From Thermoplasmata archaeon (lineage in GTDB: Archaea > Thermoplasmatota > Thermoplasmata > Lutacidiplasmatales > UBA184), in contig JBKQPJ010000008.1 in assembly GCA_052326305.1 (NCBI GenBank), positions 28,498 to 92,497 of the forward strand: DNA of 64,000 bases, given 5' to 3'. Made by a program: the position numbers and the translations under genes. Below the pieces are notes generated by a model. It did not search any database. It worked only from the letters and a program-made list of their open reading frames with translations, and was not told where the DNA came from. How positions within the stretch are numbered: position 1 is the first letter of the stretch; each line of letters opens with the position of its first letter. Shown here in pieces: positions 1 to 37,332 of this stretch.

Positions 1-362
1 GCCGCCACATTCGCGCTGGCCGACCGCTCGTTGCGCTCGGAACACTTACTCACATTTGTGAGTGAGGGCTTCCTCTGGTCGCGCCCGCCCTCGGCTCTGG
101 GCTTCTGCCCCTTGATCTGCGCCCGCTCGAGATCGATGCGCACATCAGTGTCTTTTCGCAAGCCGGGGTAGGGGTGCGTACACGTCCGGAAGGAAGGCAG
201 ATTCTCCGGATGACCTGCCCGAGAGATAACTGCCAGGCGGAGTTCCTCGGTTGTTTCGGGGCCGACCTCTAATGTCCGATACGCCGGAAGTGGATCCGGA
301 CTGAGTAGTCCCACTCAAGAGACGGGCCCGATGGGTCCTGAGCCGGGGAACTGTTAAGTCGG

Positions 363-860
363 GTGGCTGGTCCGGTGGGCCCGCAGGACCCCCAGTACAT
401 GGCGGAATCGCGCGAACCTAATCCCACAGAAGCCCAGGTACAGGAGGACCTGATCCGGCTCGATGCCTACCGCTCCCAGCTGAACGGCCTCATCCAGCAG
501 CACCAGATCCTGATCGCGTCGCGCCAGGACCACCTCCGGGCGCGGGAAAGCCTCGAGGGGATCGACCGATCGTCGGCGGGCGACGAGATGCTCGTCCCGC
601 TCGGCGGAGAGGCGTTCGTCCGGGGCCGGGTCCATCGGGACGCTCCCATCATCCTCGGGATCGGTTCGGGCGTCGCGGCCGAGATGGACCGGTCGAAGGC
701 GGCCGAGGTCATCGCCGAGAGGATCACCCGCATCGAGCAGGCGGTCCGCGATATCGAGGGCCAGATGGGGTCGGTCGACGAACGGATCCAGCTCCTCTCC
801 CGCCGCCTCGACGCCGCGTCGCGCTCCTCGAGGGCGCCGTCCGATGTGGGCCGCGATTAA
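363..860 (+). CDS. pfdA: prefoldin alpha subunit (GimC alpha)
   Basis: 165-aa translation has the coiled-coil / two beta-hairpin (LVPLGGEAFVRGRV...ILGIGSGVAAE) / coiled-coil layout of archaeal prefoldin alpha. Sits directly upstream of ftsY, as in many archaea. Confidence 0.7.
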   Translation: MAGPVGPQDPQYMAESREPNPTEAQVQEDLIRLDAYRSQLNGLIQQHQILIASRQDHLRARESLEGIDRSSAGDEMLVPLGGEAFVRGRVHRDAPIILGIGSGVAAEMDRSKAAEVIAERITRIEQAVRDIEGQMGSVDERIQLLSRRLDAASRSSRAPSDVGRD

Positions 861-1881
861 GGCCCGCCTTCGGCGCTCGAGCGAACCCGAGCCGTCCTCT
901 CCCGAAGCCACGCCGCCCTCCCCTCCTTCTCCCGGGGGATCGTCGACCGCCGCCTCCTCACCGGGCCGGCCCTCCGCGGGGCCGGGCGAGGATTCGGCGC
1001 TCTTTGGAGGCGGCGTCTTCGCTCGTCGGCTCAAGGAGGGAACGATCGACGACGTGCTCGACGACCTCGAGATCGTGCTGCTGCAATCGGACGTCGCGCT
1101 CCCCGTGATCGAGCGGCTGCGACGCGACCTCGTCCGGGAGCTCGCAGGCCGCAAGCTCAAGTTCGGGGTCGACGCCGAGGAGGCGATCCGCGTCTCGCTC
1201 GAGCGGTCGGTGCGCTCGATCCTCGGCCGGACCTCGCTCGACCTCGGGGCCGCGATCCGCGCCCACGTGCCGAAACCGTACATCATCCTGTTCGTCGGCG
1301 TCAACGGCACCGGGAAGACGACGACGGTGGCGAAGTTCGCGGGCTGGCTCCGGGCCCAGGGGTTCTCGAGCGTCATCGCCGCGGGCGACACGTTCCGGGC
1401 CGGGGCGATCGAGCAGCTCCTGACCCACGGCGAGCGCCTCGGCGTCCGGGTCGTCCGGCAGCAGGAGGGCTCCGATCCCGCCGCGGTGGCGTTCGATGCC
1501 ATCGCGCACGCCAAGGCGAAGGGGATCGACGTCGTGCTGATCGACACCGCCGGCCGGCAGCACACGAACGAGAACCTGATCGAGGAGGCGAAGAAGATCC
1601 GGCGCGTCGCCGCGCCGACCCTGACGCTGTTCGTCGGCGACGCGCTCTCGGGCAACGACGTCGTCGAGCAGGCGCGCCTGTTCGACCAGGCGCTCGGGAT
1701 CGACGGTCTCGTCCTCACGAAGCTCGATGCGGACGCGAAGGGCGGGGCTGCTCTCAGCGCCTCGTTCGTCACGAAGAAGCCGATCCTGTTCGTCGGCCTC
1801 GGCCAGGGGTACGCCGACCTCGCTCCGTTCGACGCCGACTGGATGGTCCGGCGCCTGTTCACGGAGGAGGCGGCCGGTTGA
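844..1881 (+). CDS. ftsY: signal recognition particle receptor FtsY (SRP GTPase)
   Basis: GVNGTGKTTT P-loop, DTAGRQ motif and LTKLDADAKGG G4/G5 motifs identify the SRP54/FtsY GTPase family. An N-terminal acidic/Pro-rich A-domain is followed by the NG domain. Confidence 0.9.
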   Translation: MWAAIKARLRRSSEPEPSSPEATPPSPPSPGGSSTAASSPGRPSAGPGEDSALFGGGVFARRLKEGTIDDVLDDLEIVLLQSDVALPVIERLRRDLVRELAGRKLKFGVDAEEAIRVSLERSVRSILGRTSLDLGAAIRAHVPKPYIILFVGVNGTGKTTTVAKFAGWLRAQGFSSVIAAGDTFRAGAIEQLLTHGERLGVRVVRQQEGSDPAAVAFDAIAHAKAKGIDVVLIDTAGRQHTNENLIEEAKKIRRVAAPTLTLFVGDALSGNDVVEQARLFDQALGIDGLVLTKLDADAKGGAALSASFVTKKPILFVGLGQGYADLAPFDADWMVRRLFTEEAAG

Positions 1882-2630
1882 CGGTCCATCTCGACGTCGT
1901 TCTCGTCCGGCCGAAGGAGGACGGCAACGTCGGCGCCACTGCCCGCGTCGCCCGGAACTTCGGGGCGGAGCGCCTGATCCTGGTCGCGCCCCGCGCCCGG
2001 GTCGGCTCCGAGGCCCGGCGCCGGGCGATGGGCGGCCTCGCGCTCCTCACCTCGGCGGTCCGCTCGCCGTCGCTGGCCCCGGCGGTCGAGGGCGCCGACC
2101 TCGTCGTCGGCACGACCGACCTTTCGACGGGCCGGTCTACCGCCTACCTCCGCCGCTCCGTCAGCCCCGAACGGCTCGGGGAGATCGCGCGCACGCTCGA
2201 GGGGCGGCTCGCCGTCGTCTTCGGACCGGAGGACAACGGCCTCTCGCGCGAGGAGCTCGCGCTCTGCGACCTCCTGGTCCACATCCCCGCCCGTCGGGAA
2301 TTCCCGACGCTCAACGTCTCGCACGCCGCCGGCGTGGTCCTCTACGCGGTCCACCGCGCCCGGGGTCCGGCCGATCCCGAGACGACCCCCGCGCCCGAGA
2401 TCGTCGAGATGAACGGGCGCGAAAAGGAGCTGTTCCTCGTGCGTCTCGGCGAGCTCCTCGCCCGCACGCGCTACCCGGCGCACAAACGACGGGGTTTAAT
2501 CCTCCTGTTCCGTCGCGTCCTCGGCCGGGCGACGCCTTCCGAGGCGGAGTACCGGATGATGCTGGGGCTCCTGAGGAGCGTCGGCACCACGCTGGACCGG
2601 GGAGTTCCGGATGGCAAGCGAAGAAGGTGA
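1878..2630 (+). CDS. SpoU/TrmH-family RNA 2'-O-methyltransferase (SPOUT)
   Basis: TTG start overlapping the ftsY stop (TTGA). The N-terminus VVLVRPKEDGNVGATARVARNFGA and later GPEDNGLS...HIP motifs are typical of the SPOUT TrmH/TrmJ family. Confidence 0.7.
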   Translation: MTVHLDVVLVRPKEDGNVGATARVARNFGAERLILVAPRARVGSEARRRAMGGLALLTSAVRSPSLAPAVEGADLVVGTTDLSTGRSTAYLRRSVSPERLGEIARTLEGRLAVVFGPEDNGLSREELALCDLLVHIPARREFPTLNVSHAAGVVLYAVHRARGPADPETTPAPEIVEMNGREKELFLVRLGELLARTRYPAHKRRGLILLFRRVLGRATPSEAEYRMMLGLLRSVGTTLDRGVPDGKRRR

Positions 2631-4555: not shown

Positions 4556-5215
4556 ATGCCCGACCAGTTCACCCTTCTCCTCGAGTGGAGGCGCAACGAA
4601 GCGGCCGGCCGCGGCCTCGCCAAGCTTCCCCCCGACTACTACGGGGGGACGAGCACGTACCTCCGCGAGCTCCGGCGGTCCTACGAGTCGGACCTCCGGG
4701 AGAACCCGTCGAGCCGGAAGGGGGAGATCTCGCGGCAGACGTACCAGCGGGCCGGCCAGGTCGCCCGCGACATCCTCGAAGGACGGGTCCAGAAGATCCT
4801 CTCGCTCTCGTTCCAGGCGAGCATCGGTGGTGCCCGCGAGCTCCCGAACGCGCTGCCCGAGGAGCGGAGGATGTTCGACGAGCTGCTCGGGACCCTCCTC
4901 GAGTACCGCCGGACCGCCGCCCCGTACCTCGAGCCGTTCGTGGGAACCACGGCGGCGCCCCCCCCCGAGGCCAAACCGGTCGAGCGAGCCCCGGCGCCCG
5001 AACCGACCCCCGCTCCCGCGGCCCGGGCCCCCGGGGCCGCGGGCCCGCTCGCCTACGTGCGGATCCTCGAGGATGGCCATACGGTCGAGGTGGGCGCCGA
5101 CTCGATCGACCTGCGCGCGGACGATCTCCTGTCGCTCCCGCCCGCGACGGCGAAGCTGCTCGTCGACACGAAGGTCGCGGAGCCGATCAAGGCCTCGCTC
5201 CCGCCGGTCCGCTAG
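4556..5215 (+). CDS. GINS-family replication protein (Gins51/Gins15-like), tentative
   Basis: ATG at 4556 inside the longer track ORF. LAKLPPDYYGGTSTYLRELRR ... GRVQKILSLSF ... LPEERRMFDELLGTLLEY resembles the A-domain pattern of archaeal Gins51 from memory. C-terminal Pro/Ala-rich linker. Confidence 0.4.
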   Translation: MPDQFTLLLEWRRNEAAGRGLAKLPPDYYGGTSTYLRELRRSYESDLRENPSSRKGEISRQTYQRAGQVARDILEGRVQKILSLSFQASIGGARELPNALPEERRMFDELLGTLLEYRRTAAPYLEPFVGTTAAPPPEAKPVERAPAPEPTPAPAARAPGAAGPLAYVRILEDGHTVEVGADSIDLRADDLLSLPPATAKLLVDTKVAEPIKASLPPVR

Positions 5216-6357
5216 CGCGCCTCGCCGATCCCGGCCGGGGGCACGGAGAGCTCGAGCGCCCGGAACCGATCGAACCCGAAGAGGAGGTTCTTCACGGCGA
5301 GCCGGAGCCGGACCTCCTCCTCGCTCGACCGGGTCCTCTTCAGCGCGGCCGCGAACAGCTCGGGGAATCCCCAGGCCCCGAGCGCCTCCGCCTGGGAGCG
5401 GAAGGCGGTCTCGACCCATCCGGCGGCCCGGGCGGCGGCCCGCAGCCGGGTGAAGTTGACGAACACCGAGAGGTCCGTCTCCCCGGGCGCGGAGAGCGGA
5501 TCGTCGGCCGCCCGGTGCCGCCGGATCGCCTGCAGCGTTCCGCGCGGGTGCGCGGCGAGGAGCTCGGCCTCGGCCATCCCGTAGTCGAGGATCAGGAACC
5601 GGCCCCCGACGAGGTGGTCGGCGACCTCACGGACGAGCGCCTCGGCCGAGCTCGAGAGCTCGACGACCGTACCGACCTCGGCCTGCTCGGGCAGCGGCGG
5701 TGGGGGGACCGGATCGACGATCTCCTTCTCGGCCGGAGCGATCCGGCCGCCCTCCAGTCGTACCCCGAGCTCGGCCCATCCGCTCGGAGTCCGGCGGAGG
5801 CGTCGGGCGGGAAGCGCGTCCAGGAGCTCGTTCGCCAGCACCACGCCGGCGAACGGCCCCTCCGCGGCGACGGACGCGCTCTCGCGGACGGGAAGGTTCG
5901 CCGCCTCCCCGGCGGCCCGGGCCCGGGCGAGCGCCGTGCGGCGGAGCGCGTTCGATCGCTCGATGAGGACGTACTCGGCGGAGGCGGCGAGCCGCGACTC
6001 CCCGAGCGCCTCCAGGATCCCGGCGGCGAGGCTCCCGTCCCCGGGGCCGAGCTCCACGATCCGTACACGAGCCGACGCGGACAGGCGCTCGCAGACGCTC
6101 CCGATCTCCCGCGCGAGGGTCCGGGCGAAGAGTGGGTGGACGTGCGGGGCCGTGTAGAAGTCGCCCCCGGTCCCGAGGGGCGAGACCTCCCGTTCATAGT
6201 ACCCGAGCCCCGGGGCATAGAGCGCCACGTCCATGAATCGGTCGAACGCGACGAACCCGTCGGGATCGGCGCGCGCGCGGAGCCGGGCGAGGAGGTCGGG
6301 CGCCGGCGTCGGGCTTTCGGCCGGTCCGTTCGTCGTCGGGTCCGGGAGCGGAGCCAC
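5212..6357 (-). CDS. MidA/DUF185-family SAM-dependent methyltransferase
   Basis: DFYTAPHVHPLFA and ELGPGDGSLA motifs with class I MTase core spacing, as in the DUF185 / NDUFAF7 family. Confidence 0.7.
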   Translation of the reverse strand: MAPLPDPTTNGPAESPTPAPDLLARLRARADPDGFVAFDRFMDVALYAPGLGYYEREVSPLGTGGDFYTAPHVHPLFARTLAREIGSVCERLSASARVRIVELGPGDGSLAAGILEALGESRLAASAEYVLIERSNALRRTALARARAAGEAANLPVRESASVAAEGPFAGVVLANELLDALPARRLRRTPSGWAELGVRLEGGRIAPAEKEIVDPVPPPPLPEQAEVGTVVELSSSAEALVREVADHLVGGRFLILDYGMAEAELLAAHPRGTLQAIRRHRAADDPLSAPGETDLSVFVNFTRLRAAARAAGWVETAFRSQAEALGAWGFPELFAAALKRTRSSEEEVRLRLAVKNLLFGFDRFRALELSVPPAGIGEAR

Positions 6358-6378
6358 GGGCCGCGGCCTCCCGCGCCG

Positions 6379-7164
6379 TCAGCCGATGTACCCGACGTCC
6401 TCTCGGGTCGGGGCGGACGTTCCGCCCGACGGCTCACCGGAGCGCTGCTCCACTTCGTGGATCTTCTGCGCGATCCGGTCGATCTCCCGGGCCTTCGCCT
6501 CGAGGGCGGTGAAATCGATCTCCACGCGCAGGACCTTGCCGAGGACCTTGAGGACCGCTTCCGCGCTGTGGGGGTCGACGAAGTACCCGCTCGTCTCCCC
6601 CATGAGGCAGACCCCCTCCATCCCGAACATCCGTCCGAGGCCGAGGAACAGCCCGCTCGCCCCGATCAGGCCGCCGCCGGGGTCGTTGCGGGAGAAGACG
6701 ACGCCGAACTTCTTCATCGCCTCGACCCGGGCGGGGATCGTCGCCGCGCCGAGGACCCGCGGCGTCTCGACCGCGTGGCCCTGGGCGAAGCCGGCGAGCG
6801 TGTAGACCTCCTTGACCCCGAGGCCCGCGCAGTAGTCGAGCACCCGGTCGGTGATCTCGTACTGCCCTTCCGGGCTGATCCCCTGGTAGTCGCCGCCGAG
6901 GACGAGGATGTCGTGCGGGGCGGAGGCGGGGGCCTTCCAGTACGCGAGCTCGTTCGAGACGAGCCGGATCACTCCGGTCTCGCTGACGTACACCTGGGGG
7001 GGGAAGAACTTCGAGTAGATCGTCGCGAGCGGCTTCGTGGGGAGCTGGTCCCGCAGGTAGTCCGCCGCCAGCTTTCCGACGTTGCCGACCCCCGGGAGCC
7101 CTTCGACCAGGATCGGATCGCGGAGCTGGACCTTCTCGAGCGTGCGGATGACGACGTCTTGCAC
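6379..7164 (-). CDS. proteasome assembly chaperone PAC2-family protein (PbaA/PbaB-like)
   Basis: ILVEGLPGVGNVGKLAADYL N-terminus, LVLGGDYQG core, and length and composition typical of archaeal PAC2/DUF75 proteins. Confidence 0.6.
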   Translation of the reverse strand: MQDVVIRTLEKVQLRDPILVEGLPGVGNVGKLAADYLRDQLPTKPLATIYSKFFPPQVYVSETGVIRLVSNELAYWKAPASAPHDILVLGGDYQGISPEGQYEITDRVLDYCAGLGVKEVYTLAGFAQGHAVETPRVLGAATIPARVEAMKKFGVVFSRNDPGGGLIGASGLFLGLGRMFGMEGVCLMGETSGYFVDPHSAEAVLKVLGKVLRVEIDFTALEAKAREIDRIAQKIHEVEQRSGEPSGGTSAPTREDVGYIG

Positions 7165-7228: not shown

Positions 7229-7990
7229 CTATCCCGGGGACGAGGGCGCTTCGACCCGCCAGCCCCGCTCCTCGAGCCGGGCCCGCCAGATCCGGGTGAG
7301 GTCCGCGCGGTTCCCGACCTTCTCGACCGAGAGGGTGTGCTGGTGCCGGTCCCCGCGGGGCTCGGCGTGGAGGGTGAGGACGAGGTCGGCGAGGTCCTCG
7401 AGCCGGGTCGTCGTCGCCCGCTCGTGCGAGCTCGAATGGACCGCGATGAGCGCCTGGCCCCCGATCGTCTGGCAGCGGTGCCGGATCTGCCGCGCGACCG
7501 TGAGGACGTCCCGCGGGTCGAGCACCTCGAAGAAGAAGTCGACGGAGTCGACGACCATCCGGAACGGGGCGTCGATCGTCGCGAGGTCGGCGAGCATCCG
7601 GTCGGTGAGGCTGAACGACGGGCGGGCCCGGCCCTCGGGCTCCGGCCGGGTGAGGTCCTCGAGCGAGAGCCCCCGCTCCCGGACCCGGGCGACCTCGAGC
7701 CCGCGGACGAGGACCCGCTCGTAGTACTCGTCCGCCAGGTTGACGACCTTGATGTCGGTCGGGTCCCACCCGAAGTCCTCGAACGCTCCGCGGACGTCGT
7801 CCGTGCGCTCGTACGTCGTGTAGAACAGGACGGGCGAGGTCCCGACGCCGGCGTTCGCGAACTGCTTGGCGAGCAGCGGCGCCCCCGATCCCGACGTGCC
7901 CGAGAGGACGGAGAGCCAGCCGGGACGCAGTGCCGGGCCGATCGGCTGGTCGATCTCGGGGATGTCGAAGATCCGCTGGGCCTCGGACAT
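7229..7990 (-). CDS. KaiC/RadB-like RecA-superfamily protein with degenerate P-loop
   Basis: ATG at 7988-7990 (MSEAQRIFDIPEID...). The RecA-like fold is recognisable (GWLSVLSGTSGSGAPLL in place of Walker A, with no Lys). Stop-start juxtaposed with the upstream gene. Confidence 0.6.
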   Translation of the reverse strand: MSEAQRIFDIPEIDQPIGPALRPGWLSVLSGTSGSGAPLLAKQFANAGVGTSPVLFYTTYERTDDVRGAFEDFGWDPTDIKVVNLADEYYERVLVRGLEVARVRERGLSLEDLTRPEPEGRARPSFSLTDRMLADLATIDAPFRMVVDSVDFFFEVLDPRDVLTVARQIRHRCQTIGGQALIAVHSSSHERATTTRLEDLADLVLTLHAEPRGDRHQHTLSVEKVGNRADLTRIWRARLEERGWRVEAPSSPG

Positions 7991-7992
7991 GC

Positions 7993-8577
7993 TCAGCGGC
8001 CGGCCCGGGCGACGTCGATGGTCTCGTCGACGACGAGGTTCAGCATCTGGTCGATCGCCGCCGCCTCCTCGTCGGTCGTCTCGAGGACGAGCGTGAGGAC
8101 CTGGCGGGTCTTGAGGTTGTTCAAAAGGATGTGGAAGAACTCGGAGAGGAGCTCGGGGGGGTTGTGGATCGCGAGCGAGTTCACGCTGTCGATCACGACG
8201 GTGGTCCGGGGGTGCGGGTAGCGTCGCAGGAGGTACTCGACCCGGAGCATGATCTCCTCCAGCGCCCGCGGGCTCTCGACGTACGTCGCGTTCGCGAGCG
8301 GGTTCGAGTAGTTCATCATCAGGTGGCTGATCGCATCGACGAACGAGATCCGGTCGGGCGTCACGTCGAGCGCCTGGGCGAGCGACCAGACGAACGACGC
8401 CGGGTTCGTCACCGCGACGTAGACGGTGTGGTTGTTCGACTCCGATCCGACGTCGCGCAGCGTCGCGTTCAGGACGGCGAAGTAGTGGTCGGCGTACTCC
8501 CGGGGGTCGAGCTTCAGCGCCACGGCGCTCCCGAGCGGGAGCGCGCGCAGCCGGTCGGCGACGTCGACGGGCGCCAT
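7993..8577 (-). CDS. KaiC/RadB-like RecA-superfamily protein lacking Walker A
   Basis: 194 aa with beta-strand/helix alternation and VVIDSVNSL (Walker B-like) but no GxxxxGK[ST]. Sits 3 nt after the upstream KaiC-like gene. Confidence 0.5.
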   Translation of the reverse strand: MAPVDVADRLRALPLGSAVALKLDPREYADHYFAVLNATLRDVGSESNNHTVYVAVTNPASFVWSLAQALDVTPDRISFVDAISHLMMNYSNPLANATYVESPRALEEIMLRVEYLLRRYPHPRTTVVIDSVNSLAIHNPPELLSEFFHILLNNLKTRQVLTLVLETTDEEAAAIDQMLNLVVDETIDVARAGR

Positions 8578-8580
8578 CCC

Positions 8581-9387
8581 CTACCCGCCCCCGTCCGCGC
8601 CCCGGGCCCCCTTCAGGTGGGGCGCCATGAGCAGGCCGATCGGCGTCAGCTCGATCACGTACTGGGTCCGGGAGTGGGCGGTCCCGCGCATCTTGACGAT
8701 CTGGAGGACCCGGAGGATGTCGCCCATCCGACGATTGTTCCACAGGAGGATCACCCCGTCCACGATCGCCTCCTCGACCCCGTGGGTCGAGTAGCGGCCG
8801 GACTGCGGGCCGATCTCCGAGACGAGCAGGGACGTGCAGCCCGCCTCGCTCAGCCCCTCGCCGAGGCGCAGGAGGAAGTCGCGGATCTGCTCGTCCCGGC
8901 GGATCCGGTAGCAGAGCGAAGTGAGGCTGTCGAGCACGAGCCGCTTGACCCCGAGCTCCCGGACGAGGCTGGCGATCGTCCGCAGCAGGATGTCGATGTC
9001 CTCGGGGGCCAGCTCCTCCCGCTCGAGGCCGAGCTTCCGGTAGATCACGGGAAGGTCGACGAACATCAACGAGCCGTTTGCGACCAGCTCCGGCCGGAAG
9101 AAGTCGAACGTGGAGAGGTTCTGGACCAGCTTCCCCGACGACTCCGTCACGGAGATGAACAGCGACCGCTCGCCCTTCTCCGCCCCCCGGACGAGGAACT
9201 CGAGGCAGAGCGTCGTCTTTCCCGTGCCGACGCTCCCCGCCACGAGCACCATGTTCCCCCGGGGGATCCCGCCTTCGAGGATGCTGTCGAGCCCCTCGAT
9301 CCCCGTCAGGCACCGTTCGAGGGTGGTCGCCGCGCTCGCGAGCTCACGGTTCTCCGAGACGGGGACCGGGCCGGTCGGTGGGTCCAT
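8581..9387 (-). CDS. KaiC/RadB-like RecA-superfamily ATPase (intact P-loop)
   Basis: GIEGLDSILEGGIPRGNMVLVAGSVGTGKTTLCLEF (Walker A), LVLDSLTSL (Walker B). Single-domain KaiC/RAD55-type protein. Confidence 0.8.
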   Translation of the reverse strand: MDPPTGPVPVSENRELASAATTLERCLTGIEGLDSILEGGIPRGNMVLVAGSVGTGKTTLCLEFLVRGAEKGERSLFISVTESSGKLVQNLSTFDFFRPELVANGSLMFVDLPVIYRKLGLEREELAPEDIDILLRTIASLVRELGVKRLVLDSLTSLCYRIRRDEQIRDFLLRLGEGLSEAGCTSLLVSEIGPQSGRYSTHGVEEAIVDGVILLWNNRRMGDILRVLQIVKMRGTAHSRTQYVIELTPIGLLMAPHLKGARGADGGG

Positions 9388-9412
9388 CGGGGTAAATCAG
9401 GCCGGCCCGTGC

Positions 9413-11743
9413 CTAAGAGGGTTGTGGCCTTGAGGAATCGTCGGGGGACGGCGCCGAACCGTCAGCCGGGATTTTGCGGAGGGGTTCGGGATCCAGCCAC
9501 CATACCGCTCCGGCCTCCGTCCGCTCGGTCCGGCGGATCGCCCCGAGCCGTCCAAGCCGGGCTCCGACACGACGGACGACCTCGGGGTCGGTAGGGTACC
9601 GGGCGCGCAGCTCCGCGAGGGGTAGGCGGAGAAGCCGACCGGCCTCGACGCTCCAAGACCGCTCCCGCAACCAGGCGATCGCCATCTCGGGCGGAGGTGT
9701 GGCGGCTCGGAAAGGGGAATCCGCGGGCCGCCCCGCGGCAGGATCCTCCCCGCGGCCGCCCGCTGCCGTGGTGGGGGGCGGGACCGGCCGGGGGATCCGT
9801 GCCGTTCTCACCCACCGGACCGACTGGCCTTTTCCGATCAGGACCGCCGCCTCCCCCCGCGGCAGCGCCAGAAGGCGCTCCGCCGGCACCCCCGGCGCGG
9901 CCCGCGCGAGCTCCCGCGCCTCCTCGGGGAGGCCGCGGAAGGCAACGAAATCGGCCACGTTCGTCCACGCCGCCTCCCGGACGTTCTCGGGGAGCGACGC
10001 GATCGATTGGGTGGCGAGGACCACGTGGACGTTGCGCCGCCGAGCGAGGCGGAGCATCTCGGCCAGGCTCTCGTGGGCGAACCATTGGGCCTCGTCGAGG
10101 AAGACGAACGTCTTCGATCCCGGTCCGGAGGCCAGCAGCTCCGACCAAACGAGCGCGAGGTAGACCGCGAGGAGGTAGCGCGCGGTCGCCTCCCCGACCC
10201 GGGCGGCGTCTCCCGAGACGAGCACGATCCGACCCGGTCGAACGAACTCGGCCGCGCTCAGCTCGGGGGTGCGCGCGCAGAGCATCCGGGCGAGCGTCGG
10301 GTTGCGGACCACTTCGTGGAGGAGCCGGCGGGCCCCGTCGGCGTCCTCGGGCCGCTCCCGGATCCGCGCGGCGAGCTCCCGAAGAGATTCTTCCGCGCCG
10401 GGCGGGGCGGCTCGTCGGGTCAGGCCCGAGGTCGAAAGGAGGGTGTGGGCGTCGGCGAGGGTCCCGCCGGGGAAGGCGGCGGCCGACCGAACCGCCCGCG
10501 TCAGCATCTCCTCGAGGCGGGGCCCCCAGAAGGAGTCGGCGTACCGGCCCGATCGGACTCGCCGTAGGGCGTGGACGATGTCGGCGATCCGCCGTTCGGC
10601 CCGCACCGGGTCGATCGCGGTACCGCCTCCGATCCCTTCGAGCGCGTTGATCGAGGGGGCGTCCTCTCCCGGGGAGATCGAGAGCACGGGTACCCCGGCC
10701 CCGGCGAGCTCTGAGCGGACCTCGCGGGCGGTCTCGCCGAGCGGATCGAGGAGGACGAGCCCCCCCTGTCGGGCCGCCCGGACCGCGAGCCCGACGATCA
10801 GCGAGCTCTTCCCCATCCCGGTCTCGCCGAGGATCGCGAGGTGGCGCCCTTGCGCGGGCTCGACGGGCACGCGGACCACGGTGCCTGCCGGCGTGCGGCC
10901 GAGGGGAAGTCCCCCGGACCCGATCGCTCCCAGGCCCGCACCCGAACCTCCGACCTCCCGCGGGGGCAGCACCGCGATCAGCTCGGCCGATGTGAGGAGG
11001 AAGCGGGGCTCGATCCGGAGGTAGGCGAGGGCGCGAGAGAACGAGATCCCGATCCCATCGATCCGCCTCCATGCGGCCTCCGCCGCGCCGATGGCGCGAC
11101 GACGCTCCTCGGCGGGAGCTGCCCGAGGCACCCTCACCCGCACCGTCGCGGTCCAGAGCGGCCCCGGGTCGCTCGCCACCGGGGTCGGCGGCGGGACCCG
11201 GAACGGTGCGGCTCTCCCACCGACCGGGGCCGGTCGGGGGATCCCTGCCGGCTCTAGATATCGCTCGAGATCCGGGAGTCGATAACGGTCGACGACCGGG
11301 GAGACGAGACAATCGAGCTCGGTCCCCGACCGGATCGCGGACAGGGCGAGCGCCGCGGTCAACACCACCGCCCCGCTTTCCGGGGGTGGGACCGGTCGCT
11401 CCCCCGGGAGTCCCCTCCTTCGGGCGAACAGGGTCTCGCCGCCGTCCGGGACCGGGTCCACGGGGGTCCGTCGCCACTGACCTGGGTCGTAGGCGCCCGC
11501 GAGGACCCGCTCGACCCATCGAACGGACGACGGGCCCCTCACTTCGAGCGAGATCGCCGGCTCGGGACCGGATCGCACCGCGACCCCCAGCGACACGCCG
11601 AGGCCGTGGCCGGCGCGCAGCGCTGTCTCCAACCTCGACCTCCCCCGGCTCGCTTCGTCCCGGACCATCGGCCCTTCCGCGCGGGAAACGAACCGCCACG
11701 CGGCCGCCTCGCCGGCCGGCCGGTGGGCCCCCGGGACACGCAC
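9413..11743 (-). CDS. HerA/FtsK/VirB4-superfamily P-loop ATPase (DUF87-like)
   Basis: HLAILGETGMGKSS Walker A, FVFLDEAQWF Walker B and HVVLATQS are characteristic of DUF87 HerA-like ATPases. The true start may be the internal MVRDEA at about 11668. Lies 25 nt upstream of the KaiC-like triad on the same strand. Confidence 0.65.
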   Translation of the reverse strand: MRVPGAHRPAGEAAAWRFVSRAEGPMVRDEASRGRSRLETALRAGHGLGVSLGVAVRSGPEPAISLEVRGPSSVRWVERVLAGAYDPGQWRRTPVDPVPDGGETLFARRRGLPGERPVPPPESGAVVLTAALALSAIRSGTELDCLVSPVVDRYRLPDLERYLEPAGIPRPAPVGGRAAPFRVPPPTPVASDPGPLWTATVRVRVPRAAPAEERRRAIGAAEAAWRRIDGIGISFSRALAYLRIEPRFLLTSAELIAVLPPREVGGSGAGLGAIGSGGLPLGRTPAGTVVRVPVEPAQGRHLAILGETGMGKSSLIVGLAVRAARQGGLVLLDPLGETAREVRSELAGAGVPVLSISPGEDAPSINALEGIGGGTAIDPVRAERRIADIVHALRRVRSGRYADSFWGPRLEEMLTRAVRSAAAFPGGTLADAHTLLSTSGLTRRAAPPGAEESLRELAARIRERPEDADGARRLLHEVVRNPTLARMLCARTPELSAAEFVRPGRIVLVSGDAARVGEATARYLLAVYLALVWSELLASGPGSKTFVFLDEAQWFAHESLAEMLRLARRRNVHVVLATQSIASLPENVREAAWTNVADFVAFRGLPEEARELARAAPGVPAERLLALPRGEAAVLIGKGQSVRWVRTARIPRPVPPPTTAAGGRGEDPAAGRPADSPFRAATPPPEMAIAWLRERSWSVEAGRLLRLPLAELRARYPTDPEVVRRVGARLGRLGAIRRTERTEAGAVWWLDPEPLRKIPADGSAPSPDDSSRPQPS

Positions 11744-11855
11744 GGTCGACGCCGGACGGATGGCGGACGAAGGAGAGGTCGGCCTAGCCGAACGCTGAAA
11801 GCCGCCTCGTCAGCCTCAAGTAGCCCTCCCCCCACGCCGGGACGAGCGTCCCCCG

Positions 11856-12977
11856 ATGCCGTCGATGGAAGAGCAGATACTCGCCGTCGAGGAGGAGATC
11901 CGCAATACCTCTTACAACAAGGCGACCCAGGGGCACATCGGCCGGCTGAAGGCGAAGCTCGCGGTCCTCCGCCTCGAGCGGGAGTTCCGGGCGAAGGGTA
12001 AGGGCGGGGGCGCGGGGTACTCGGTCCGCAAGAGCGGTCACGCGACGGTCGGGCTCGTCGGGTACCCGTCCGTCGGCAAGTCGACGCTGCTGAACCGCCT
12101 GACCGCGGCGGAGAGCGAGACCGCGGCCTACGACTTCACGACGGTCTCGATCATCCCGGGAATGCTCCGCTGGAGCGGCGCCTCGATCCAGATCCTGGAT
12201 ATGCCCGGTCTCGTTCCCGGCGCCGCTACCGGCCGGGGGCGGGGCCGTGAGGTCCTGTCGGTCGTGCGGTCGACCGACCTCATCCTCTTCATGGTCGATC
12301 CGGAGCACCCGAACCTGCGGGCCCTCGTCCAGGAGCTCGAGGCCGCGGCCGTCCGCATCAACGCCCGCCCCCCGAAGGTCGTCATCCACCGCGTCGACCG
12401 CGGCGGGCTCACGATCTCGAGCACCGTGCGGCTGACCCACCTCGCCGGCGGCCTCGCGACCCCGATCGCTCGGGAGTTCGGCCTGCACAACGGCACCATC
12501 ATCTTCCGGGAGGACGCCACGGCGGACGAGCTGATCGACGTCCTGGCCGGCAACCGCGTCTACCTGCCCGCGCTCCTCGCCGTGAATAAGTCGGAGTACC
12601 TCACGGCGGACGACCGGGCCCGTCTCGCCGTCGCGACGCAGCCGTTCGTGCCGTCGTACATCAGCGCGCGCGACGGCACCGGGCTCACCGAGCTCGTCAA
12701 TCGCATCGGCCGGGCCCTGCGGTTCATACGGATCTACGTGAAGCCCCCCGGACGTCCGCCGGACCGGGAGGAGCCGGTGATCCTCCGGCGGGGCGATTCC
12801 GTTACGGAGCTGCTCCGGCGGCTTCCGGGGGATCTCGACAAGACGTTCAAGGCCGCCCAGATCTGGGGGCCGAGCGCCCGGTTCCCGGGTCAGACGGTCG
12901 GGCGGGACCACGTCCTCGACGACGAGGACGTCGTCACGATCGTCGTCGCCCGCGGGTCGGCGCGCGCGAGCGAGTGA
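11856..12977 (+). CDS. developmentally regulated GTP-binding protein (DRG/Rbg1-type Obg-family GTPase with TGS domain)
   Basis: VGLVGYPSVGKSTLLNRLT G1 motif, DMPGLV G3 and NKSE G4. The C-terminal TGS-like region (IYVKPPG...) matches the DRG family. Confidence 0.85.
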   Translation: MPSMEEQILAVEEEIRNTSYNKATQGHIGRLKAKLAVLRLEREFRAKGKGGGAGYSVRKSGHATVGLVGYPSVGKSTLLNRLTAAESETAAYDFTTVSIIPGMLRWSGASIQILDMPGLVPGAATGRGRGREVLSVVRSTDLILFMVDPEHPNLRALVQELEAAAVRINARPPKVVIHRVDRGGLTISSTVRLTHLAGGLATPIAREFGLHNGTIIFREDATADELIDVLAGNRVYLPALLAVNKSEYLTADDRARLAVATQPFVPSYISARDGTGLTELVNRIGRALRFIRIYVKPPGRPPDREEPVILRRGDSVTELLRRLPGDLDKTFKAAQIWGPSARFPGQTVGRDHVLDDEDVVTIVVARGSARASE

Positions 12978-13698
12978 CCGGACCCGGCGGCCGCGCCCCC
13001 GCGGCCCGCAGCACGCCCCCGATCAGGTAGTGGCCCCGGTGGAACGGCTCGAGCCGCACCCCGCGCTCGAGGTCGACCCCGTCGGCGAGGCTCGATTCGG
13101 CGCCTTCGAGGTGCCGGATCGCCGAGAGATCGCGGCCCATGCTCGCGGTCTTCAGGGCCATGAGGAGCGCCGCCCCATCCCCGGAGAGGAGGAGCTCGGC
13201 GTTCCGTTGCACGATCTCGACCTGGTCGGGCTGGGCGACATCGGCGTACACGCCGTGGACGACGGGAACGAGGTCCGCGTACGAACCAGGATCGCGCGCG
13301 TCGCCCAGGATCGGGAGCAGGCTGGGCCATCGCGCGCTCGTGGCGAGCAGGCGAGCGAACGGCCGGAGGCTCCGCTCGACCGCGTAAACGCTTCCGGACG
13401 GCCCGACAAGGTCGGCGACGTGGGAGGCGGTCGTGCCGCTCGCGGCTCCGAGGTACAGCCAGCGCTCGCCGGGCCGTGGGATCGGACCGGACCAGCCCGC
13501 GGCGATCCCGGCCGCCAGCTTCGACCGAGCTGGCTCGAAGCGACGGAACCTGCGCCCGTCGCGCTCGATCCACCCTTCCCCGTAGACGGGGGGCAGCTCC
13601 CCGACCGCCTCGGTCCAGAGCTCGACGCGGTCGGCGAGGCGGCGACGCAGGAGCCGCGGGGAGAAACGGTCCTCCTCGAACGGCCGCGCGGTCCTCAC
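12934..13698 (-). CDS. flpA: fibrillarin-like rRNA/tRNA 2'-O-methyltransferase
   Basis: WLYLGAASGTTASHVADLVGPSGSVYAVERSLRPFARLL ... LLPILGDARDP is the fibrillarin SAM-binding core. Proposed GTG start at 13696-13698 overlapping the nop5 stop (GTGA). The C-terminal Arg/Gly-rich tail is unusual. Confidence 0.75.
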   Translation of the reverse strand: MRTARPFEEDRFSPRLLRRRLADRVELWTEAVGELPPVYGEGWIERDGRRFRRFEPARSKLAAGIAAGWSGPIPRPGERWLYLGAASGTTASHVADLVGPSGSVYAVERSLRPFARLLATSARWPSLLPILGDARDPGSYADLVPVVHGVYADVAQPDQVEIVQRNAELLLSGDGAALLMALKTASMGRDLSAIRHLEGAESSLADGVDLERGVRLEPFHRGHYLIGGVLRAAGARPPGPVTRSRAPTRGRRRS

Positions 13699-14612
13699 CG
13701 GGACCTCCGACGGAGCTCCTCGATACGGCGGTCCCGCCGGCGGGTCAGACCGGGCGCGATCGGGGCGCGCGTCGTCGCATCGGCTCGCACGGCGATCGCG
13801 GCCAGGGCCGCGAGGCTCCGAGCGTACGCCCCCCGACGCTCGACCGGCACGTCCCCCATCCGCTCGGCCCGGAAGATCACGCCGAACCTCGGTCCCCGGT
13901 CGGGGGACGGTCGGCGGCGGGACCCGAGCAGCTGCAACCGCGGCGCGCGCATCCTTCCGAGAGGCGCCACCCCGCCCGCGGCGGCGACGAGCCGCGCCGC
14001 GACCCGGGCCCCCACGACGGCCGAGAGGTTCGGGACGACCTCGCGGGCTGCATTCTCGACCGTCTCGACGAGCGCCCGGTGATGGTGCTCGAGGGTGCCC
14101 CGGGCCGAAGCCCAGCGGGCCGAATACTCGACCAGCGGGGATCCCGGCACGGTCAGCATCGCTTCGGCGGCCCGTTGCTCGCGACCGACCGCCCGCTCGA
14201 GGCGCTCCTCCTCCCGCGCCAACGTGACGAGCACCTCCTCGGGCGCGCGGAGGGCGCGGGCGAGGCTCGAGGTGGCGATCTCTCGCAGGTACGCCCGTTC
14301 GGCGGACGGCTCGGGGCGCGGCAGCAGGCGGCGGCCGCGACGCCACTCCACCACGGTCGCCGGGGCCACGCGCCTTCCCGTCCGGAGCGCGAGGGCCCGG
14401 ACGAGCTCCGGGCCGGCGGCGTGGACCTCGACATCGGCCGGGAGCTCGGCGACCGCGCCCGCCAGGGACGCCGGGACCGTTTCCGGCGCGAGGCCCGCTC
14501 CGGGGCGGGGGGGTTCCCGGCCGACCGGTGGGCGGTGGACCACGGGCCGATCGCTTCCGGGGGGGAACAGATAGAGCGCCGGCCCGAACGGGATGACGAG
14601 CGCCGCGCTCAC
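13695..14612 (-). CDS. nop5: C/D box snoRNP protein Nop5 (Nop56/58)
   Basis: NOP domain VVPNLSAVVGARVAARLVAAAGGVAPLGRMRAPRLQLLG. Immediately upstream of fibrillarin, the canonical archaeal arrangement. Confidence 0.75.
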   Translation of the reverse strand: MSAALVIPFGPALYLFPPGSDRPVVHRPPVGREPPRPGAGLAPETVPASLAGAVAELPADVEVHAAGPELVRALALRTGRRVAPATVVEWRRGRRLLPRPEPSAERAYLREIATSSLARALRAPEEVLVTLAREEERLERAVGREQRAAEAMLTVPGSPLVEYSARWASARGTLEHHHRALVETVENAAREVVPNLSAVVGARVAARLVAAAGGVAPLGRMRAPRLQLLGSRRRPSPDRGPRFGVIFRAERMGDVPVERRGAYARSLAALAAIAVRADATTRAPIAPGLTRRRDRRIEELRRRSR

Positions 14613-32828: not shown

Positions 32829-33701
32829 ATGGCCGCGCGGTTCTGCTCGCACTGCGGACGCCCGGTCCCCGCGAACGCCAGCTTCTGCGCCTCGTGCGGG
32901 GCGGCCGTCGCGTCGACGTACGCCCCCCCGTACGCGCCCACGGCCCCGCCAGGGGTGGCCCCTCCGCTCTCGTTCGGGTCCCCCGCCCCATACTCGCCGT
33001 ATCCCCCTCGCTATCCGAGACCTGCCGAGACCGCTCCGGGCTCGCCCGAAAGCGACCGAAGCGCGCTCTCGAACGTGACCCTCGCCGCGATCCTCGGCCT
33101 GGTGGCGGCGGCGCTTTCCTACGTCTGGCTGTTCGCGAGCCCCGCGACGTCGCTGTTCGGCGCCAGCGCGGTCGGCTCTTCGACCTCCGTCACCCTGAGC
33201 CTCGCGGCCCTCTACTATGTCGTCGGCGTCGCGGGCGTGGGAGTGGTCATCGGGCTGCTCGAACTGTGGATCTACCGGCAGGCGTTCGCCACCCTCGCCG
33301 TCCACGATCGGAGGTTCTCCACTCCCGCGGCGCTGGTCCTGATGGCCCTTGTCGCCGTGATGATACTTGCCGTGATCGGGGCCGCCCTGGTGACGGTGCT
33401 CTACGAGGCGGTCACCTGCGCGGGGGTAGGAAACCCGATCACTTCCTCTTGCCTGAACGTCGGGACGTTGTTGGGCCTCATCCTCCTGTCCGGCGTGGTA
33501 GCGATCATCGCCTTCGTCGGCTACATCGGCCTCTTGCTGGGGATCTGGCGGCTCGGGTCGTACTTCGACGAGGATACGTTCAAGATCGGGGCGATCCTCC
33601 TCATCATCCCGCTCCTGAACTTCGTGGGACTGATCCTGATCCTCGTCGCCGCGCGCTCCGCCGCACGGAAGATCGACGGCCCTCCGGGCTACCGGTTCTG
33701 A
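32829..33701 (+). CDS. zinc-ribbon plus DUF973-like multi-pass membrane protein
   Basis: N-terminal CSHCGRPV...CASCG zinc ribbon, a Pro/Tyr-rich linker, then four or five TM helices. Confidence 0.55.
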   Translation: MAARFCSHCGRPVPANASFCASCGAAVASTYAPPYAPTAPPGVAPPLSFGSPAPYSPYPPRYPRPAETAPGSPESDRSALSNVTLAAILGLVAAALSYVWLFASPATSLFGASAVGSSTSVTLSLAALYYVVGVAGVGVVIGLLELWIYRQAFATLAVHDRRFSTPAALVLMALVAVMILAVIGAALVTVLYEAVTCAGVGNPITSSCLNVGTLLGLILLSGVVAIIAFVGYIGLLLGIWRLGSYFDEDTFKIGAILLIIPLLNFVGLILILVAARSAARKIDGPPGYRF

Positions 33702-33864: not shown

Positions 33865-35391
33865 ATGCCGGAGAGATCGGACGGGCCATCCGCTCCGGCC
33901 TCCGGGCCGTTCGACCCCCTCGGCCATCTGGCCGCGTTCGTCTCCGGCCCGGTGCCGCGCATCCTCCTCGTGAAGGGGCCGAGCGGCTCGGGCAAGAGCA
34001 TCCTCGTCCGGAGCCTGGTCGAGCGACTCACCGACTCCCTCCTCCTGATCGCCTACCGGACCGGTCCGTCGGATTCCGGACCGCCGGCCACGGCCGACGT
34101 CTCGCTGCTGCTGGTCGACCGCGGTCGGGTCTCTGGGGCCGGCGGAAATGGTCCCGACGCCCCTTCGACTCCCGGCGCCTCGGTCAACCCCCCTCGGGCG
34201 GCCTCGGCCGAGCCCCTCCCCGAGCCGATCCGGGCGGCGATCGCCCGGCTGGCGGAGACCGGCTCCGGGGTCGTCGTCATCGACGCCTGGGACCGGGCGA
34301 CCGAGGAGGCGTTCCGGTCGTTGGGGAACGGGACGGTCGACTCCGCCCACGTGACGTCGCCCATCGCGACGTTGCGGGCCCACCTCGGCCGCTTCCCTCT
34401 CCATGCCATCGTCACGGTGGCGGGGCCCGTGGACCCGGGATTCGACTCCGTCGCGGACGGCGTTCTCGAGCTCGGGACGGAGCCGCTCGACACCGCTCAG
34501 GTGCGGGTCCTGACGGTCGCCACCCTGCGCGGGGCGTCCCGGCTGGACACGCATTTCCTCTACTCCCTCGGCGGCGGACGGTTCTACACGCCGACCGGCC
34601 ATCGACCGGGGTACCTGGGCGCGGCGGGGCCCGCCGAGCCGGAGCCGGATTCCCAGGAGGGGACGTCCTGGCCCGGCTCCGTCGCTTACGCCCGCGCCTT
34701 CGGACGGTTGCGGCACCACGGGTTGACGGCGATCGAGTTCACCGAGCACACCGCGTTCCCGCTCGCCGACGTGCTGCTCCTGCCGATGGTCGCCTCGGTC
34801 GTGCGCTCCGGGGGCCGGGTGGTCTGGGTCCCGGGCGGCACGGCGACCCCGGCACGCGTCGCCGCGATGCTCGGGCGGTTCCTCCCCGAGGAGGCGATCG
34901 CGCAGAGCGTGCGGGTCCTCTCGGGGAGCTCGACCGATGCCGTGGCCCCGGCGCTCCGGCCGCTGGTACTCGTCCCCAAGCGGGCCGGCCCCGGCGCGGC
35001 GGCCCGGTCGTCCGACCCCGACCGCGTCGTCCCGCTCTTCCCCGAGGCCTACCAGTTCCTGCGCGACCGGCGGTCCGAGGGCCCCGCGATGTTCCTCCTC
35101 TCGATCGACGGCCTGAGCGCGCTTTCGACGGTCACCGGGAACGTCTACGACCCCGCGACCTTCCCCCTGATCATCTCCTCCTACGCCCGGTTGGGCCAGT
35201 TCCATGGGATCGGGTACGGCCGGCAGGACAGCCCTCTCACGAAGGCGATCCTCCCGGCGGTCGACGTCCATCTCCGGGCCCACGAGATCTACGGCCGTTC
35301 GGTCCTGGTCGGGATCCGGCCGCGCACTCCCGCGTACATCCTCGACTGGACGGAACCCGACGGGCGGTACTCGCTCGTTCCCGTCGAGTGA
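33865..35391 (+). CDS. two-domain KaiC/GvpD-like RecA-superfamily ATPase
   Basis: ILLVKGPSGSGKSILVRSLVE Walker A and VVVIDAWD Walker B in domain 1. A second degenerate RecA-like domain follows. Confidence 0.6.
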   Translation: MPERSDGPSAPASGPFDPLGHLAAFVSGPVPRILLVKGPSGSGKSILVRSLVERLTDSLLLIAYRTGPSDSGPPATADVSLLLVDRGRVSGAGGNGPDAPSTPGASVNPPRAASAEPLPEPIRAAIARLAETGSGVVVIDAWDRATEEAFRSLGNGTVDSAHVTSPIATLRAHLGRFPLHAIVTVAGPVDPGFDSVADGVLELGTEPLDTAQVRVLTVATLRGASRLDTHFLYSLGGGRFYTPTGHRPGYLGAAGPAEPEPDSQEGTSWPGSVAYARAFGRLRHHGLTAIEFTEHTAFPLADVLLLPMVASVVRSGGRVVWVPGGTATPARVAAMLGRFLPEEAIAQSVRVLSGSSTDAVAPALRPLVLVPKRAGPGAAARSSDPDRVVPLFPEAYQFLRDRRSEGPAMFLLSIDGLSALSTVTGNVYDPATFPLIISSYARLGQFHGIGYGRQDSPLTKAILPAVDVHLRAHEIYGRSVLVGIRPRTPAYILDWTEPDGRYSLVPVE

Positions 35392-36286: not shown

Positions 36287-37332
36287 GTCCGGGGCGCCCC
36301 GCACTTCGGGCAGGCCGTCGCGGTCGTGTCGATCAGCGTGCCGCAGTAGCGGCAGTTGACCTTCACCGTCTCCCGCATCACGATCTGCTGGACGGCCGGC
36401 TCGCCCGACGGGATCAGGCCGATCGGCGGAGGCGGCGGCCCGGCCGGCCCCGCGCCCGGGAAGTAGTTGACCCGGCCCCCGGCCGAGTGCTGGGGTAGCG
36501 TCGTTCGCCGCCGGGACCGCAGGTACAGGGAGATCACGACGACCACGACAAGCACGCCGAGGAGGATCAGGCCGAGGAGGAGAAGGGGGGAGGGTCCGGT
36601 CGAGGAGGCGGGGGGAGCGGCCGCCGGCGTCAGCGGGTAGCTCGTGTGGGTGACGGTCAGCTCGTCCGTCCAGGTGAACCCGTCGCCCGCGAGGTCCCGG
36701 TCCTGCTCGGTGTAGACGTAGCCGACGATGTACCCCGTCGCGGGGTCGAAGTACGCCGTCCAGGTGTACTTGGCCGTGAAGATGCCGTAGGAGTCGTCCC
36801 GGCCGAACGCCCCGGTCCCGAGGGCGGAGATCGTCGCGACGTAGCCCGTCCGGCTCGAGGAGAGCGGGAAGCTCGCGTCCCGTGAGGTGACGTTGAGCTC
36901 CGTGTCGAGCAGGTAGAACGAGCTACCGACGCCGGTCGCGTTGTTGATGTAGTACCAGACGAACGGGGCGGTGTAGTTGTACTGCCCGTCCGTCCCGGAT
37001 ACGTAGTTCAGGTACTGGAACGACGACGCGGAGAAGTTGTAATCCCCGTTCGTAGGGGACCGCAAGACCTCCGAGCCCCCTTGGTTGTTCACCCAGTGGT
37101 CGGTGAAGTTGTCGTAGGCCGACGTCACGTCGCCCGCCCGGGCGGTCACGTTCTCGGTCCCGTTGATCCACTGGTGCTCGGTGTACCCGCTGTAGTTCCC
37201 GACCCCGTTGTCGAGGACGACCGTCTCGCGGTAGGTGAACCCGTCGCCGGCGGTGGGAAGGTAGTGCGGCCCCGTGACCAAGGCCGGCGCCGCGACGAGG
37301 AGAATGGCGAGGAGCGCGAGCTTCGGGATCAT
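36283..37332 (-). CDS. secreted N-glycosylated protein with C-terminal TM anchor and cytoplasmic zinc ribbon
   Basis: ATG at 37330-37332 (MIPKLALLAILLVAAPALV signal peptide). Many N-x-S/T sequons. LLLLGLILLGVLVVVVVISLYL TM near the C-terminus, then CRYCG...CPKCG. The start overlaps the upstream stop (ATGA). Confidence 0.65.
   Translation of the reverse strand: MIPKLALLAILLVAAPALVTGPHYLPTAGDGFTYRETVVLDNGVGNYSGYTEHQWINGTENVTARAGDVTSAYDNFTDHWVNNQGGSEVLRSPTNGDYNFSASSFQYLNYVSGTDGQYNYTAPFVWYYINNATGVGSSFYLLDTELNVTSRDASFPLSSSRTGYVATISALGTGAFGRDDSYGIFTAKYTWTAYFDPATGYIVGYVYTEQDRDLAGDGFTWTDELTVTHTSYPLTPAAAPPASSTGPSPLLLLGLILLGVLVVVVVISLYLRSRRRTTLPQHSAGGRVNYFPGAGPAGPPPPPIGLIPSGEPAVQQIVMRETVKVNCRYCGTLIDTTATACPKCGAPRT

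Follow-up and report, generated by a model that had tools for sequence, protein, structure and literature searches.

Three KaiC-like genes behind a large ATPase

The window considered here (the whole 64,000-nt stretch of Thermoplasmata DNA that was analysed, with a G+C content of 72%) carries on its minus strand four intact open reading frames (ORFs), which encode a large ATPase and, downstream of it, three KaiC-like proteins that we call K1, K2 and K3. The genes follow one another with spacers of 25, 3 and 2 nt, so that the co-oriented, closely spaced set described in an earlier sequence-only reading of this DNA is borne out:

9413..11743, minus strand: large VirB4/coupling-protein-like ATPase of the FtsK-HerA superfamily, 776 aa, soluble
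8581..9387, minus strand: K1, active single-domain KaiC-family ATPase, 268 aa
7993..8577, minus strand: K2, truncated KaiC-like pseudo-ATPase, 194 aa
7229..7990, minus strand: K3, full-length KaiC-like pseudo-ATPase, 253 aa

That reading had also seen one live ATPase and two pseudo-ATPase paralogues among the three small proteins, with GxxxxGKT kept in the first alone, and both motifs and KaiC profile matches agree with it. K1 scores 193.3 bits against the Pfam KaiC family PF06745 (gathering threshold, GA, 26.6), and its nearest solved structures in the Protein Data Bank are CI-like KaiC (8zn5, E 2e-54) and PH0186 (E 5e-39). The Walker A motif GSVGTGKT (G51-T58, at 9214-9237 on the minus strand), catalytic Glu82, Walker B LVLDS (D153) and KMRG finger of K1 are invariant in 73 orthologues, across which 34% of its positions do not vary, and the combination of Walker A, catalytic Glu and Walker B Asp that marks an active RecA/KaiC-type ATPase occurs in K1 only. 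K1 is not a bona fide circadian KaiC, a protein of two tandem domains and about 500 aa, as it has a single domain and scores 155 vs 408 with PRK09302 and 96.7 vs 546 with TIGR02655; nor is it ArlH/FlaH (NF052589, 39 bits vs a cut-off of 215), and no arl genes lie nearby. Its C-terminal tail (8581-8620, minus strand) is conserved across orders (loci L081, L084-L087 and L090, see below) as ...LTPxGxLxxP(L/H)L(K/R)GG, with a short variable stretch after it, is reminiscent of the LRGG ends of ubiquitin-like proteins and may be an interface or docking motif.

K2 reaches 28.3 bits with the Pfam KaiC profile, just above GA, and also matches DUF7504 (E 0.002). It has no Walker A, an invariant LDPREYADHYF occupying the P-loop position; the catalytic Glu is replaced by Asn (VTNP), a Walker B-like VVIDS is retained, and the C-terminal third of the KaiC domain, including the finger region, is missing. 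The predicted structure is a RecA fold, and K2 is a DUF7504-type inactivated KaiC domain. A profile search of 1.8 billion representative proteins returned 660 relatives of K2 (E <= 0.001), many of them stand-alone proteins of 180-200 aa and others C-terminal in very large TPR/SNAP/CARDB proteins or fused to DUF835, which shows this inactivated domain to be widespread. In K3 the match to the KaiC profile spans the entire protein (41.9 bits). Its P-loop is the degenerate GTSGSGAP (7877-7900, minus strand), the Walker A Lys/Thr being kept in 0 of 67 orthologues from the window's lineage, and the next helix, LLAKQFA, is nearly invariant; Glu61 and Walker B VVDS are retained, as is the K-x-R motif in most orthologues. 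Distant K3 orthologues likewise have no functional P-loop (two have GSGKE, with the Lys present and the Ser/Thr lost), so that inactivation is ancient. Both motif losses had been recognised beforehand, and the alternative that the degenerate pair might be frame artefacts without a RecA fold is answered by KaiC profile scores above GA for both and by intact ORFs in about 65-70 genomes. Elsewhere in the window, a very long ORF (43007-48586, minus strand, 1859 aa from the first start codon, gene boundaries provisional) has a match to an aminoacyl-tRNA-synthetase anticodon-binding domain at aa 725-869 and, at its C-terminus, a DUF835 domain (aa 1731-1847), which is a further inactivated type related to KaiC.

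Mutual identity among K1, K2 and K3 is 20-25% or less; in hhalign comparisons K1 and K3 align over their full length (E 4.5e-5, about 20% identity), K1 and K2 give an E of 0.09, and K2 and K3 give no match. A frameshifted double-domain KaiC, which the earlier reading had raised against itself, is therefore ruled out by three separate, intact and mutually divergent ORFs in those same genomes. The genes are tightly packed throughout (median spacers of 3 nt for K1-K2 and 2 nt for K2-K3 in 65-68 lineage genomes) and overlap by 4 nt in distant lineages. Ratios of nonsynonymous to synonymous substitution rates (dN/dS, pairwise Nei-Gojobori, 14 pairs) were as follows, with one pair (L004-L005) an outlier that has higher values for all genes:

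K2: 0.01-0.09 in most pairs
K1: 0.04-0.11 in 13 of 14 pairs
K3: 0.05-0.23
PAC2: 0.04-0.18
large ATPase: 0.18-0.37
MidA: 0.16-0.38

K2 and K3 are thus among the most constrained genes of the block and hence functional proteins, as the earlier reading had expected if the degenerate copies proved to be under purifying selection.

The trio inside and outside its lineage

We scanned one genome per species and found at least 80 loci in the window's lineage, all from Thermoplasmata metagenome-assembled genomes (MAGs) including Candidatus Lutacidiplasma silvani and UBA184. Almost all of them have DRG followed by ATPase-K1-K2-K3-PAC2-MidA, in the same orientation throughout, with median spacers of 24 nt for ATPase-K1, 65 nt for K3-PAC2 and 16.5 nt for PAC2-MidA besides those given above. 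The genes belong to a 16-kb block whose synteny holds for at least 80 species, with L1, L10, P1, PurF, Nop5, fibrillarin and DRG on one side and L15e beyond MidA, and because this whole housekeeping block is syntenic, adjacency inside the lineage says little about function. The same synteny, together with the lack of mobile genes and of phage matches, excludes a conjugative or integrative element, an origin that had already been thought less likely; matches on haloarchaeal plasmids lie in giant DUF87 proteins of 3,200 aa with no annotated KaiC-type neighbours. The junction between ATPase and K1 is broken in some genomes, an opposite-strand DUF1697 gene lying between them in at least five genomes of one clade and 4.5 kb of extra genes in another locus (L057), and in a third case (L011) the ATPase is present with no trio within 5.8 kb downstream.

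Outside the lineage, the closest stand-alone K2 relatives were examined in their contexts, seven loci with a G+C content of 47-65%, in which orthology was confirmed with hidden Markov models (HMMs) built from the window's lineage (K1 216-390, K2 101-160 and K3 167-217 bits):

L084: K1-K2-K3, two Pilin_N genes nearby
L086: K1-K2-K3, no Pilin_N genes nearby
L087: K1-K2-K3, one Pilin_N gene nearby
L090: K1-K2-K3, two Pilin_N genes nearby
L092: K1-K2-K3, contig ends beside the locus
L081 (Methanomassiliicoccales MAG): K1-K2, one Pilin_N gene nearby
L085 (Methanomassiliicoccales-type): K1-K2, one Pilin_N gene nearby

Pilin_N genes with typical class III signal peptides therefore lie within about 1.5 kb downstream in 5/7 outside loci, and in none of the seven does a VirB4-like ATPase, PAC2 or MidA gene adjoin the K genes. 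The earlier reading had proposed that the same gene order in distant archaea would mark a functional module: this holds for K1-K2-K3 across Thermoplasmatota (the first five loci listed), whereas the large ATPase is absent there. A small RDD-domain membrane protein is encoded on the opposite strand downstream of the K genes in L085, L086 and L090.

A promoter-like element lies directly before K1:

9412..9425, minus strand: ACAACC-CTCTTAGG, a transcription factor B recognition element plus TATA-like box, identified by sequence conservation and position

Counted from the K1 ATG, the TATA-like box begins 32 nt upstream, and the TAG that terminates the large ATPase gene lies within it. In an ungapped alignment of 67 loci the element is conserved at 0.5-1.1 bits per position vs 0.1-0.35 upstream, and the box falls between -35 and -20 of K1 in 62/67. 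A similar box (…CATTTTAGCA…) is kept in loci that have no ATPase upstream of K1, and in distant lineages without the ATPase we find AAACC together with ATTTAA, ATTAAG or ATATAA at -31/-32 of K1. Since the box is also present where the large ATPase is absent, K1-K3 probably has its own promoter, one that would be older than the juxtaposition of ATPase and K1. TATA-like boxes occur at comparable distances before other genes of the window, for example L15e and PAC2 (CCTTTATC, a box about 38 nt before the PAC2 start), and we infer three transcription units, the ATPase, K1-K2-K3 and PAC2-MidA, with the large ATPase probably transcribed separately and divergently from DRG. Of the operon of four translationally coupled genes claimed at first, the K1-K2-K3 part stands (spacers of 3 and 2 nt), and the link from ATPase to K1 probably does not, in view of the -32 box and the interruptions in some genomes. 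The ATPase C-terminus is variable and disordered, and its conserved 'PQPS*' end is probably due to DNA-level constraint of the promoter-like box, which explains this conservation better than a docking peptide.

A VirB4-like neighbour and the question of partnership

The large ATPase has the ASCE (additional strand, catalytic Glu) core, Walker A/B motifs and fold similarity of the FtsK-HerA superfamily, with the following parts:

10904..11743, minus strand: N-terminal domain, aa 1-280, with weak sequence conservation and two alpha/beta (beta-alpha-beta-beta-alpha-beta-like) units
10805..10828, minus strand: Walker A GETGMGKS, aa 306-313, invariant in 68 homologues
10091..10096, minus strand: Walker B Asp-Glu (D550 E551), invariant columns
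9476..9691, minus strand: C-terminal winged-helix-like domain, aa 685-756, model topology H-E-H-H-E-E

Its Pfam match to the DUF87/HerA central domain (28.8 bits, GA 23.2) covers 57 residues around the P-loop only, and TraG-D_C, TrwB_AAD_bind and FtsK match below threshold, TrwB_AAD_bind and TraG-D_C at 18.9 and 20.5 bits being just under their GA of 20.5 and 22. The best single profile match is PADLOC mad8 (E 5e-19). In the predicted model (predicted local distance difference test, pLDDT, 86.9) the whole chain aligns in Foldseek with full-length TrwK/VirB4 (E 8.5e-16, TM-score 0.49), and the fold is closest to VirB4, TrwB and DptH, with two domains arranged as in VirB4 and the winged helix added at the C-terminus. 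The model further shows a disordered loop at about aa 150-195 of the N-terminal domain, an all-alpha insertion in the core, and a proline-rich disordered linker (aa 651-684, pLDDT < 50) before the winged-helix-like domain, which itself has a pLDDT of 90-96 and in which R724, G727, L730 and W748 are invariant. There is no transmembrane segment in the protein (maximum 19-residue hydropathy 1.42). The database copy ('MAG: ATP-binding protein') has 739 aa compared with our 776-aa ORF, and its annotated start is probably too far downstream, because the 37 extra residues (11633-11743, minus strand) include Trp16, which hardly varies, and a beta-strand at aa 13-18 that is modelled with confidence.

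We compared the large ATPase with each of the better-known families that it resembles and found that it belongs to none of them. HerA proper is rejected on its models (NF040937 14.2 vs 800, NF042943 13.3 vs 800), on an N-domain that is alpha/beta and not an all-beta HAS-barrel, and on the lack of a NurA or Sir2 neighbour; VirB4 of a type IV secretion system (T4SS) on TIGR00929 (16.7 vs 643) and the absence of T4SS genes from the window, the similarity being in fold only; and a type IV coupling protein (VirD4/TrwB/TraG) on the missing membrane anchor, the Pfam scores under GA and the lack of a conjugation context. The earlier assignment to a HerA/FtsK/VirB4 type is thus upheld at superfamily level and fails for HerA itself, and a conjugative VirB4/TraG family with mobile genes, which that reading had named as fatal to its proposal, finds profiles below threshold and no mobile genes in the window. 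In contrast to VirB4, VirD4/TrwB, DptH and HerA, whose sequence models all fail on it, the protein has no membrane anchor and no T4SS, NurA or Dnd partners, carries an extra C-terminal winged helix, and is chromosomal, in a housekeeping context and in one archaeal lineage. Two database searches, one of them seeded by the most divergent orthologue (L075), returned only Thermoplasmata MAG proteins, and the family looks confined to one Thermoplasmata lineage; plasmid relatives are coupling proteins and DUF87 proteins with 24-28% identity in the core only, and there were no matches in phages.

Could the four genes nevertheless form one machine, in which a K1-K2-K3 ring docks on a hexameric motor of VirB4/coupling-protein-like type and regulates it as ArlH regulates ArlI, the winged helix suggesting that the motor might be a DNA translocase? 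Invariant catalytic motifs in the ATPase, an orientation shared by all loci and a spacing to K1 of 23-25 nt in most of about 60 genomes with both genes complete are in keeping with it, and there is a precedent in the KaiC-like ArlH that partners ArlI, a hexameric ATPase of the same superfamily (PMC4858521). However, the trio occurs without the ATPase in every sampled locus outside the lineage, the promoter-like box of K1 would be older than the juxtaposition, one clade has an opposite-strand gene between the two and in L011 ATPase and trio are separated, adjacency within a block that is syntenic as a whole carries little weight, and rates differ greatly (between the window and L001, dN 0.36 for the ATPase vs 0.03-0.06). 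We consider a four-gene machine unlikely, though a partnership of the ArlI-ArlH type is the most interesting possibility. The proposal of a HerA-KaiC DNA-processing machine is likewise weakened, as the would-be partner is VirB4-like, lineage-confined, separable, probably separately transcribed and evolving at a different rate.

Another reading has the module mediate recombination or repair together with a HerA-like translocase, in the manner of crenarchaeal aRadC or the Rad51-paralogue complexes. A live RecA-superfamily protein with two dead ones beside an FtsK-HerA ATPase might recall such a module, but K1 scores 155-193 bits on KaiC models vs 26-32 bits on RadA/RadB models, Pfam scans of the window reveal no NurA, Mre11, Rad50 or other nuclease and no Sir2 near the four genes, the ATPase is not HerA as set out above, and the genomic partners of the trio elsewhere are pilins and not repair genes. 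We rate this as very unlikely, and found no specific pointer to DNA end resection or recombination. Less probable again is the view that the large ATPase belongs, or once belonged, to a system of phage defence or of a mobile element (resembling mad8 or DptH, as its best profile match and fold might hint) with the KaiC-like genes as unrelated neighbours: its position in the housekeeping block is fixed in at least 80 species, no defence, methylase, integrase or conjugation genes surround it, phage matches are lacking, and on the evidence seen it occurs in single copy and is inherited vertically. A literature search on MADS/mad8 gave nothing relevant.

A candidate KaiC-like switch and its setting

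Taken as a whole, the reading that we hold to be somewhat probable is that K1-K2-K3 is a conserved functional unit, a hetero-oligomeric KaiC-like switch with a probable ancestral role in pili, and that its VirB4-like ATPase neighbour is an unproven partner. The three genes would be translationally coupled and expressed from their own promoter. Given the conserved order of the trio and the strong purifying selection, it is reasonable to suppose that their products form a hetero-oligomeric RecA-like assembly, most likely a ring of the RecA/KaiC type, in which K1 alone would bind and hydrolyse ATP. K3 could complete or modulate the K1 site, since it keeps the interface K-x-R motif, and K2 might serve as a structural or adaptor subunit. 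Such an assembly may function as a switch, driven by ATP or by phosphorylation, in the way proposed for 'KaiC signalling hubs'. Because the module adjoins type IV pilin genes in other Thermoplasmatota, it probably served ancestrally to control or assemble a surface structure resembling a pilus, much as ArlH does for the archaellum. Where pilins are not adjacent, in the window's lineage (soil and peat Thermoplasmata related to Lutacidiplasmatales/UBA184), the module has come to lie directly downstream of the lineage-restricted VirB4-like ATPase. Additional support comes from the literature, in which KaiC-like ATPases are linked to type IV pilus systems in archaea and inactivated KaiC homologues are a general archaeal theme (PMC4858521).

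Several points weigh against this proposal of a KaiC-like switch with a pilus ancestry. HMM and motif scans found no pilin genes in the 64-kb window nor within 7 kb of the module in 80 lineage loci, and the pilin-adjacent loci number five, two of which (L081 and L085) come from related genomes. Lutacidiplasmatales are reported to be without archaellum genes (PMC9287336). Moreover, the K1 promoter is called solely from conservation and position, and the ATPase, so close upstream of K1 in most lineage genomes, has a placement compatible with read-through co-transcription and functional partnership.

Among known systems the closest parallel is with the archaeal KaiC-like and inactivated families (arCOG01171-type, DUF835, DUF7504), proposed signalling hubs that are repeatedly tied to loci for type IV pili; K1 is typical of them, K2 is of DUF7504 type, and the module likewise adjoins pilin genes in other Thermoplasmatota, although here we see a fixed ordered trio with no KaiB-like, response-regulator or DEATH-like partner adjacent. 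Makarova and colleagues reportedly put forward archaeal KaiC-like ATPases and their inactivated homologues as signalling hubs (mBio, 2017). To our knowledge, a fixed ordered trio of one active, one truncated dead and one full-length dead protein conserved across orders has not been described before. The trio and its neighbour resemble ArlH (FlaH)-ArlI in combining a single-domain KaiC-like protein with a hexameric ATPase of the FtsK-HerA/secretion superfamily and a type IV pilus-like structure. They differ in that ArlH is a homo-oligomer without pseudo-ATPase paralogues and K1 fails the ArlH models; the neighbour ATPase is VirB4/TrwB-like and not ArlI/VirB11-like, and there are no ArlJ or archaellin genes. 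With Elp456 of Elongator and the Rad51-paralogue complexes (BCDX2, Shu) there is no specific affinity, generic RecA, DnaB and KaiC folds scoring as well or better; K1 is fully KaiC-like with intact active-site motifs, and no Elp3 or tRNA link appears in the neighbourhood. A bolder picture, which we find quite unlikely, would have K1, K2 and K3 form a hetero-hexameric KaiC-type ring with two live sites (e.g. two copies of each), a prokaryotic counterpart of the Elp456/Rad51-paralogue design recruited in this Thermoplasmata lineage to gate a soluble VirB4-like winged-helix DNA/protein translocase, the whole being a two-ring ATPase machine.

Archaeal KaiC-like genes are many and their roles mostly obscure, and a module of one live and two dead copies under very strong selection across Thermoplasmatota offers a clean, tractable case. 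From it one could learn what pseudo-ATPase subunits contribute to the form of a RecA/KaiC-type ring, and by what means rings of this type govern pili or other outputs. The VirB4-like winged-helix ATPase, restricted to its lineage, is an uncharacterised family of its own, with a T4SS-type motor fold domesticated in a chromosomal, non-conjugative setting.

The immediate neighbours of the four genes serve as context only:

6379-7164, minus strand: PAC2-family protein (Pfam)
5212-6357, minus strand: MidA/Methyltransf_28 methyltransferase (Pfam)
5212..7164, minus strand: the PAC2 and MidA block as a whole

PAC2 starts 64 nt after K3, the MidA-type methyltransferase gene lies 21 nt beyond PAC2, and a DRG GTPase gene lies upstream of the large ATPase in divergent orientation; Pfam agrees with the earlier identification of these neighbours. 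The remainder of the window is of housekeeping character (ribosomal proteins L15e, L10 and L1, eIF2-alpha, aTrm56, Nop5, fibrillarin and PurF). No Pfam match at E <= 1e-5 was obtained for three large ORFs in which the G+C by codon position is coding-like: 48883-53376 (plus strand, 1497 aa), 37329-41040 (minus strand, 689/728 aa) and 354-2483 (minus strand, 709 aa). The 508-aa protein encoded at 33865-35391 (plus strand), whose N-terminal domain is an AAA_16/STAND-like NTPase, adjoins a zinc-ribbon/DUF973 membrane protein (32829-33701). Over 54001-64000 the G+C content drops from about 0.70-0.75 to 0.60-0.67, possibly reflecting another origin, and this part encodes an FG-GAP/PQQ-repeat protein (55118-56467) and a hemerythrin-domain protein (59751-60452).

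Two of the lineage loci in which the ATPase is parted from the trio have further genes of their own. The insert in L057 (9996-13658) encodes a proline-rich 512-aa protein with a C-terminal zinc ribbon and three paralogous proteins of about 205 aa, each with an N-terminal membrane helix and without a Pfam match, two of which (L057_b and L057_c) end in ...C..GTCP. These three weakly resemble the small membrane protein beside K2 in L081 (8788-9315, minus strand; 30% over 122 aa, E 0.02 in a four-sequence comparison), a likeness that we do not use as evidence and that might at best add to the link with surface proteins. In L011, a secreted protein and two paralogous response-regulator/helix-turn-helix proteins are encoded downstream of the ATPase in place of the trio (10728-14064).

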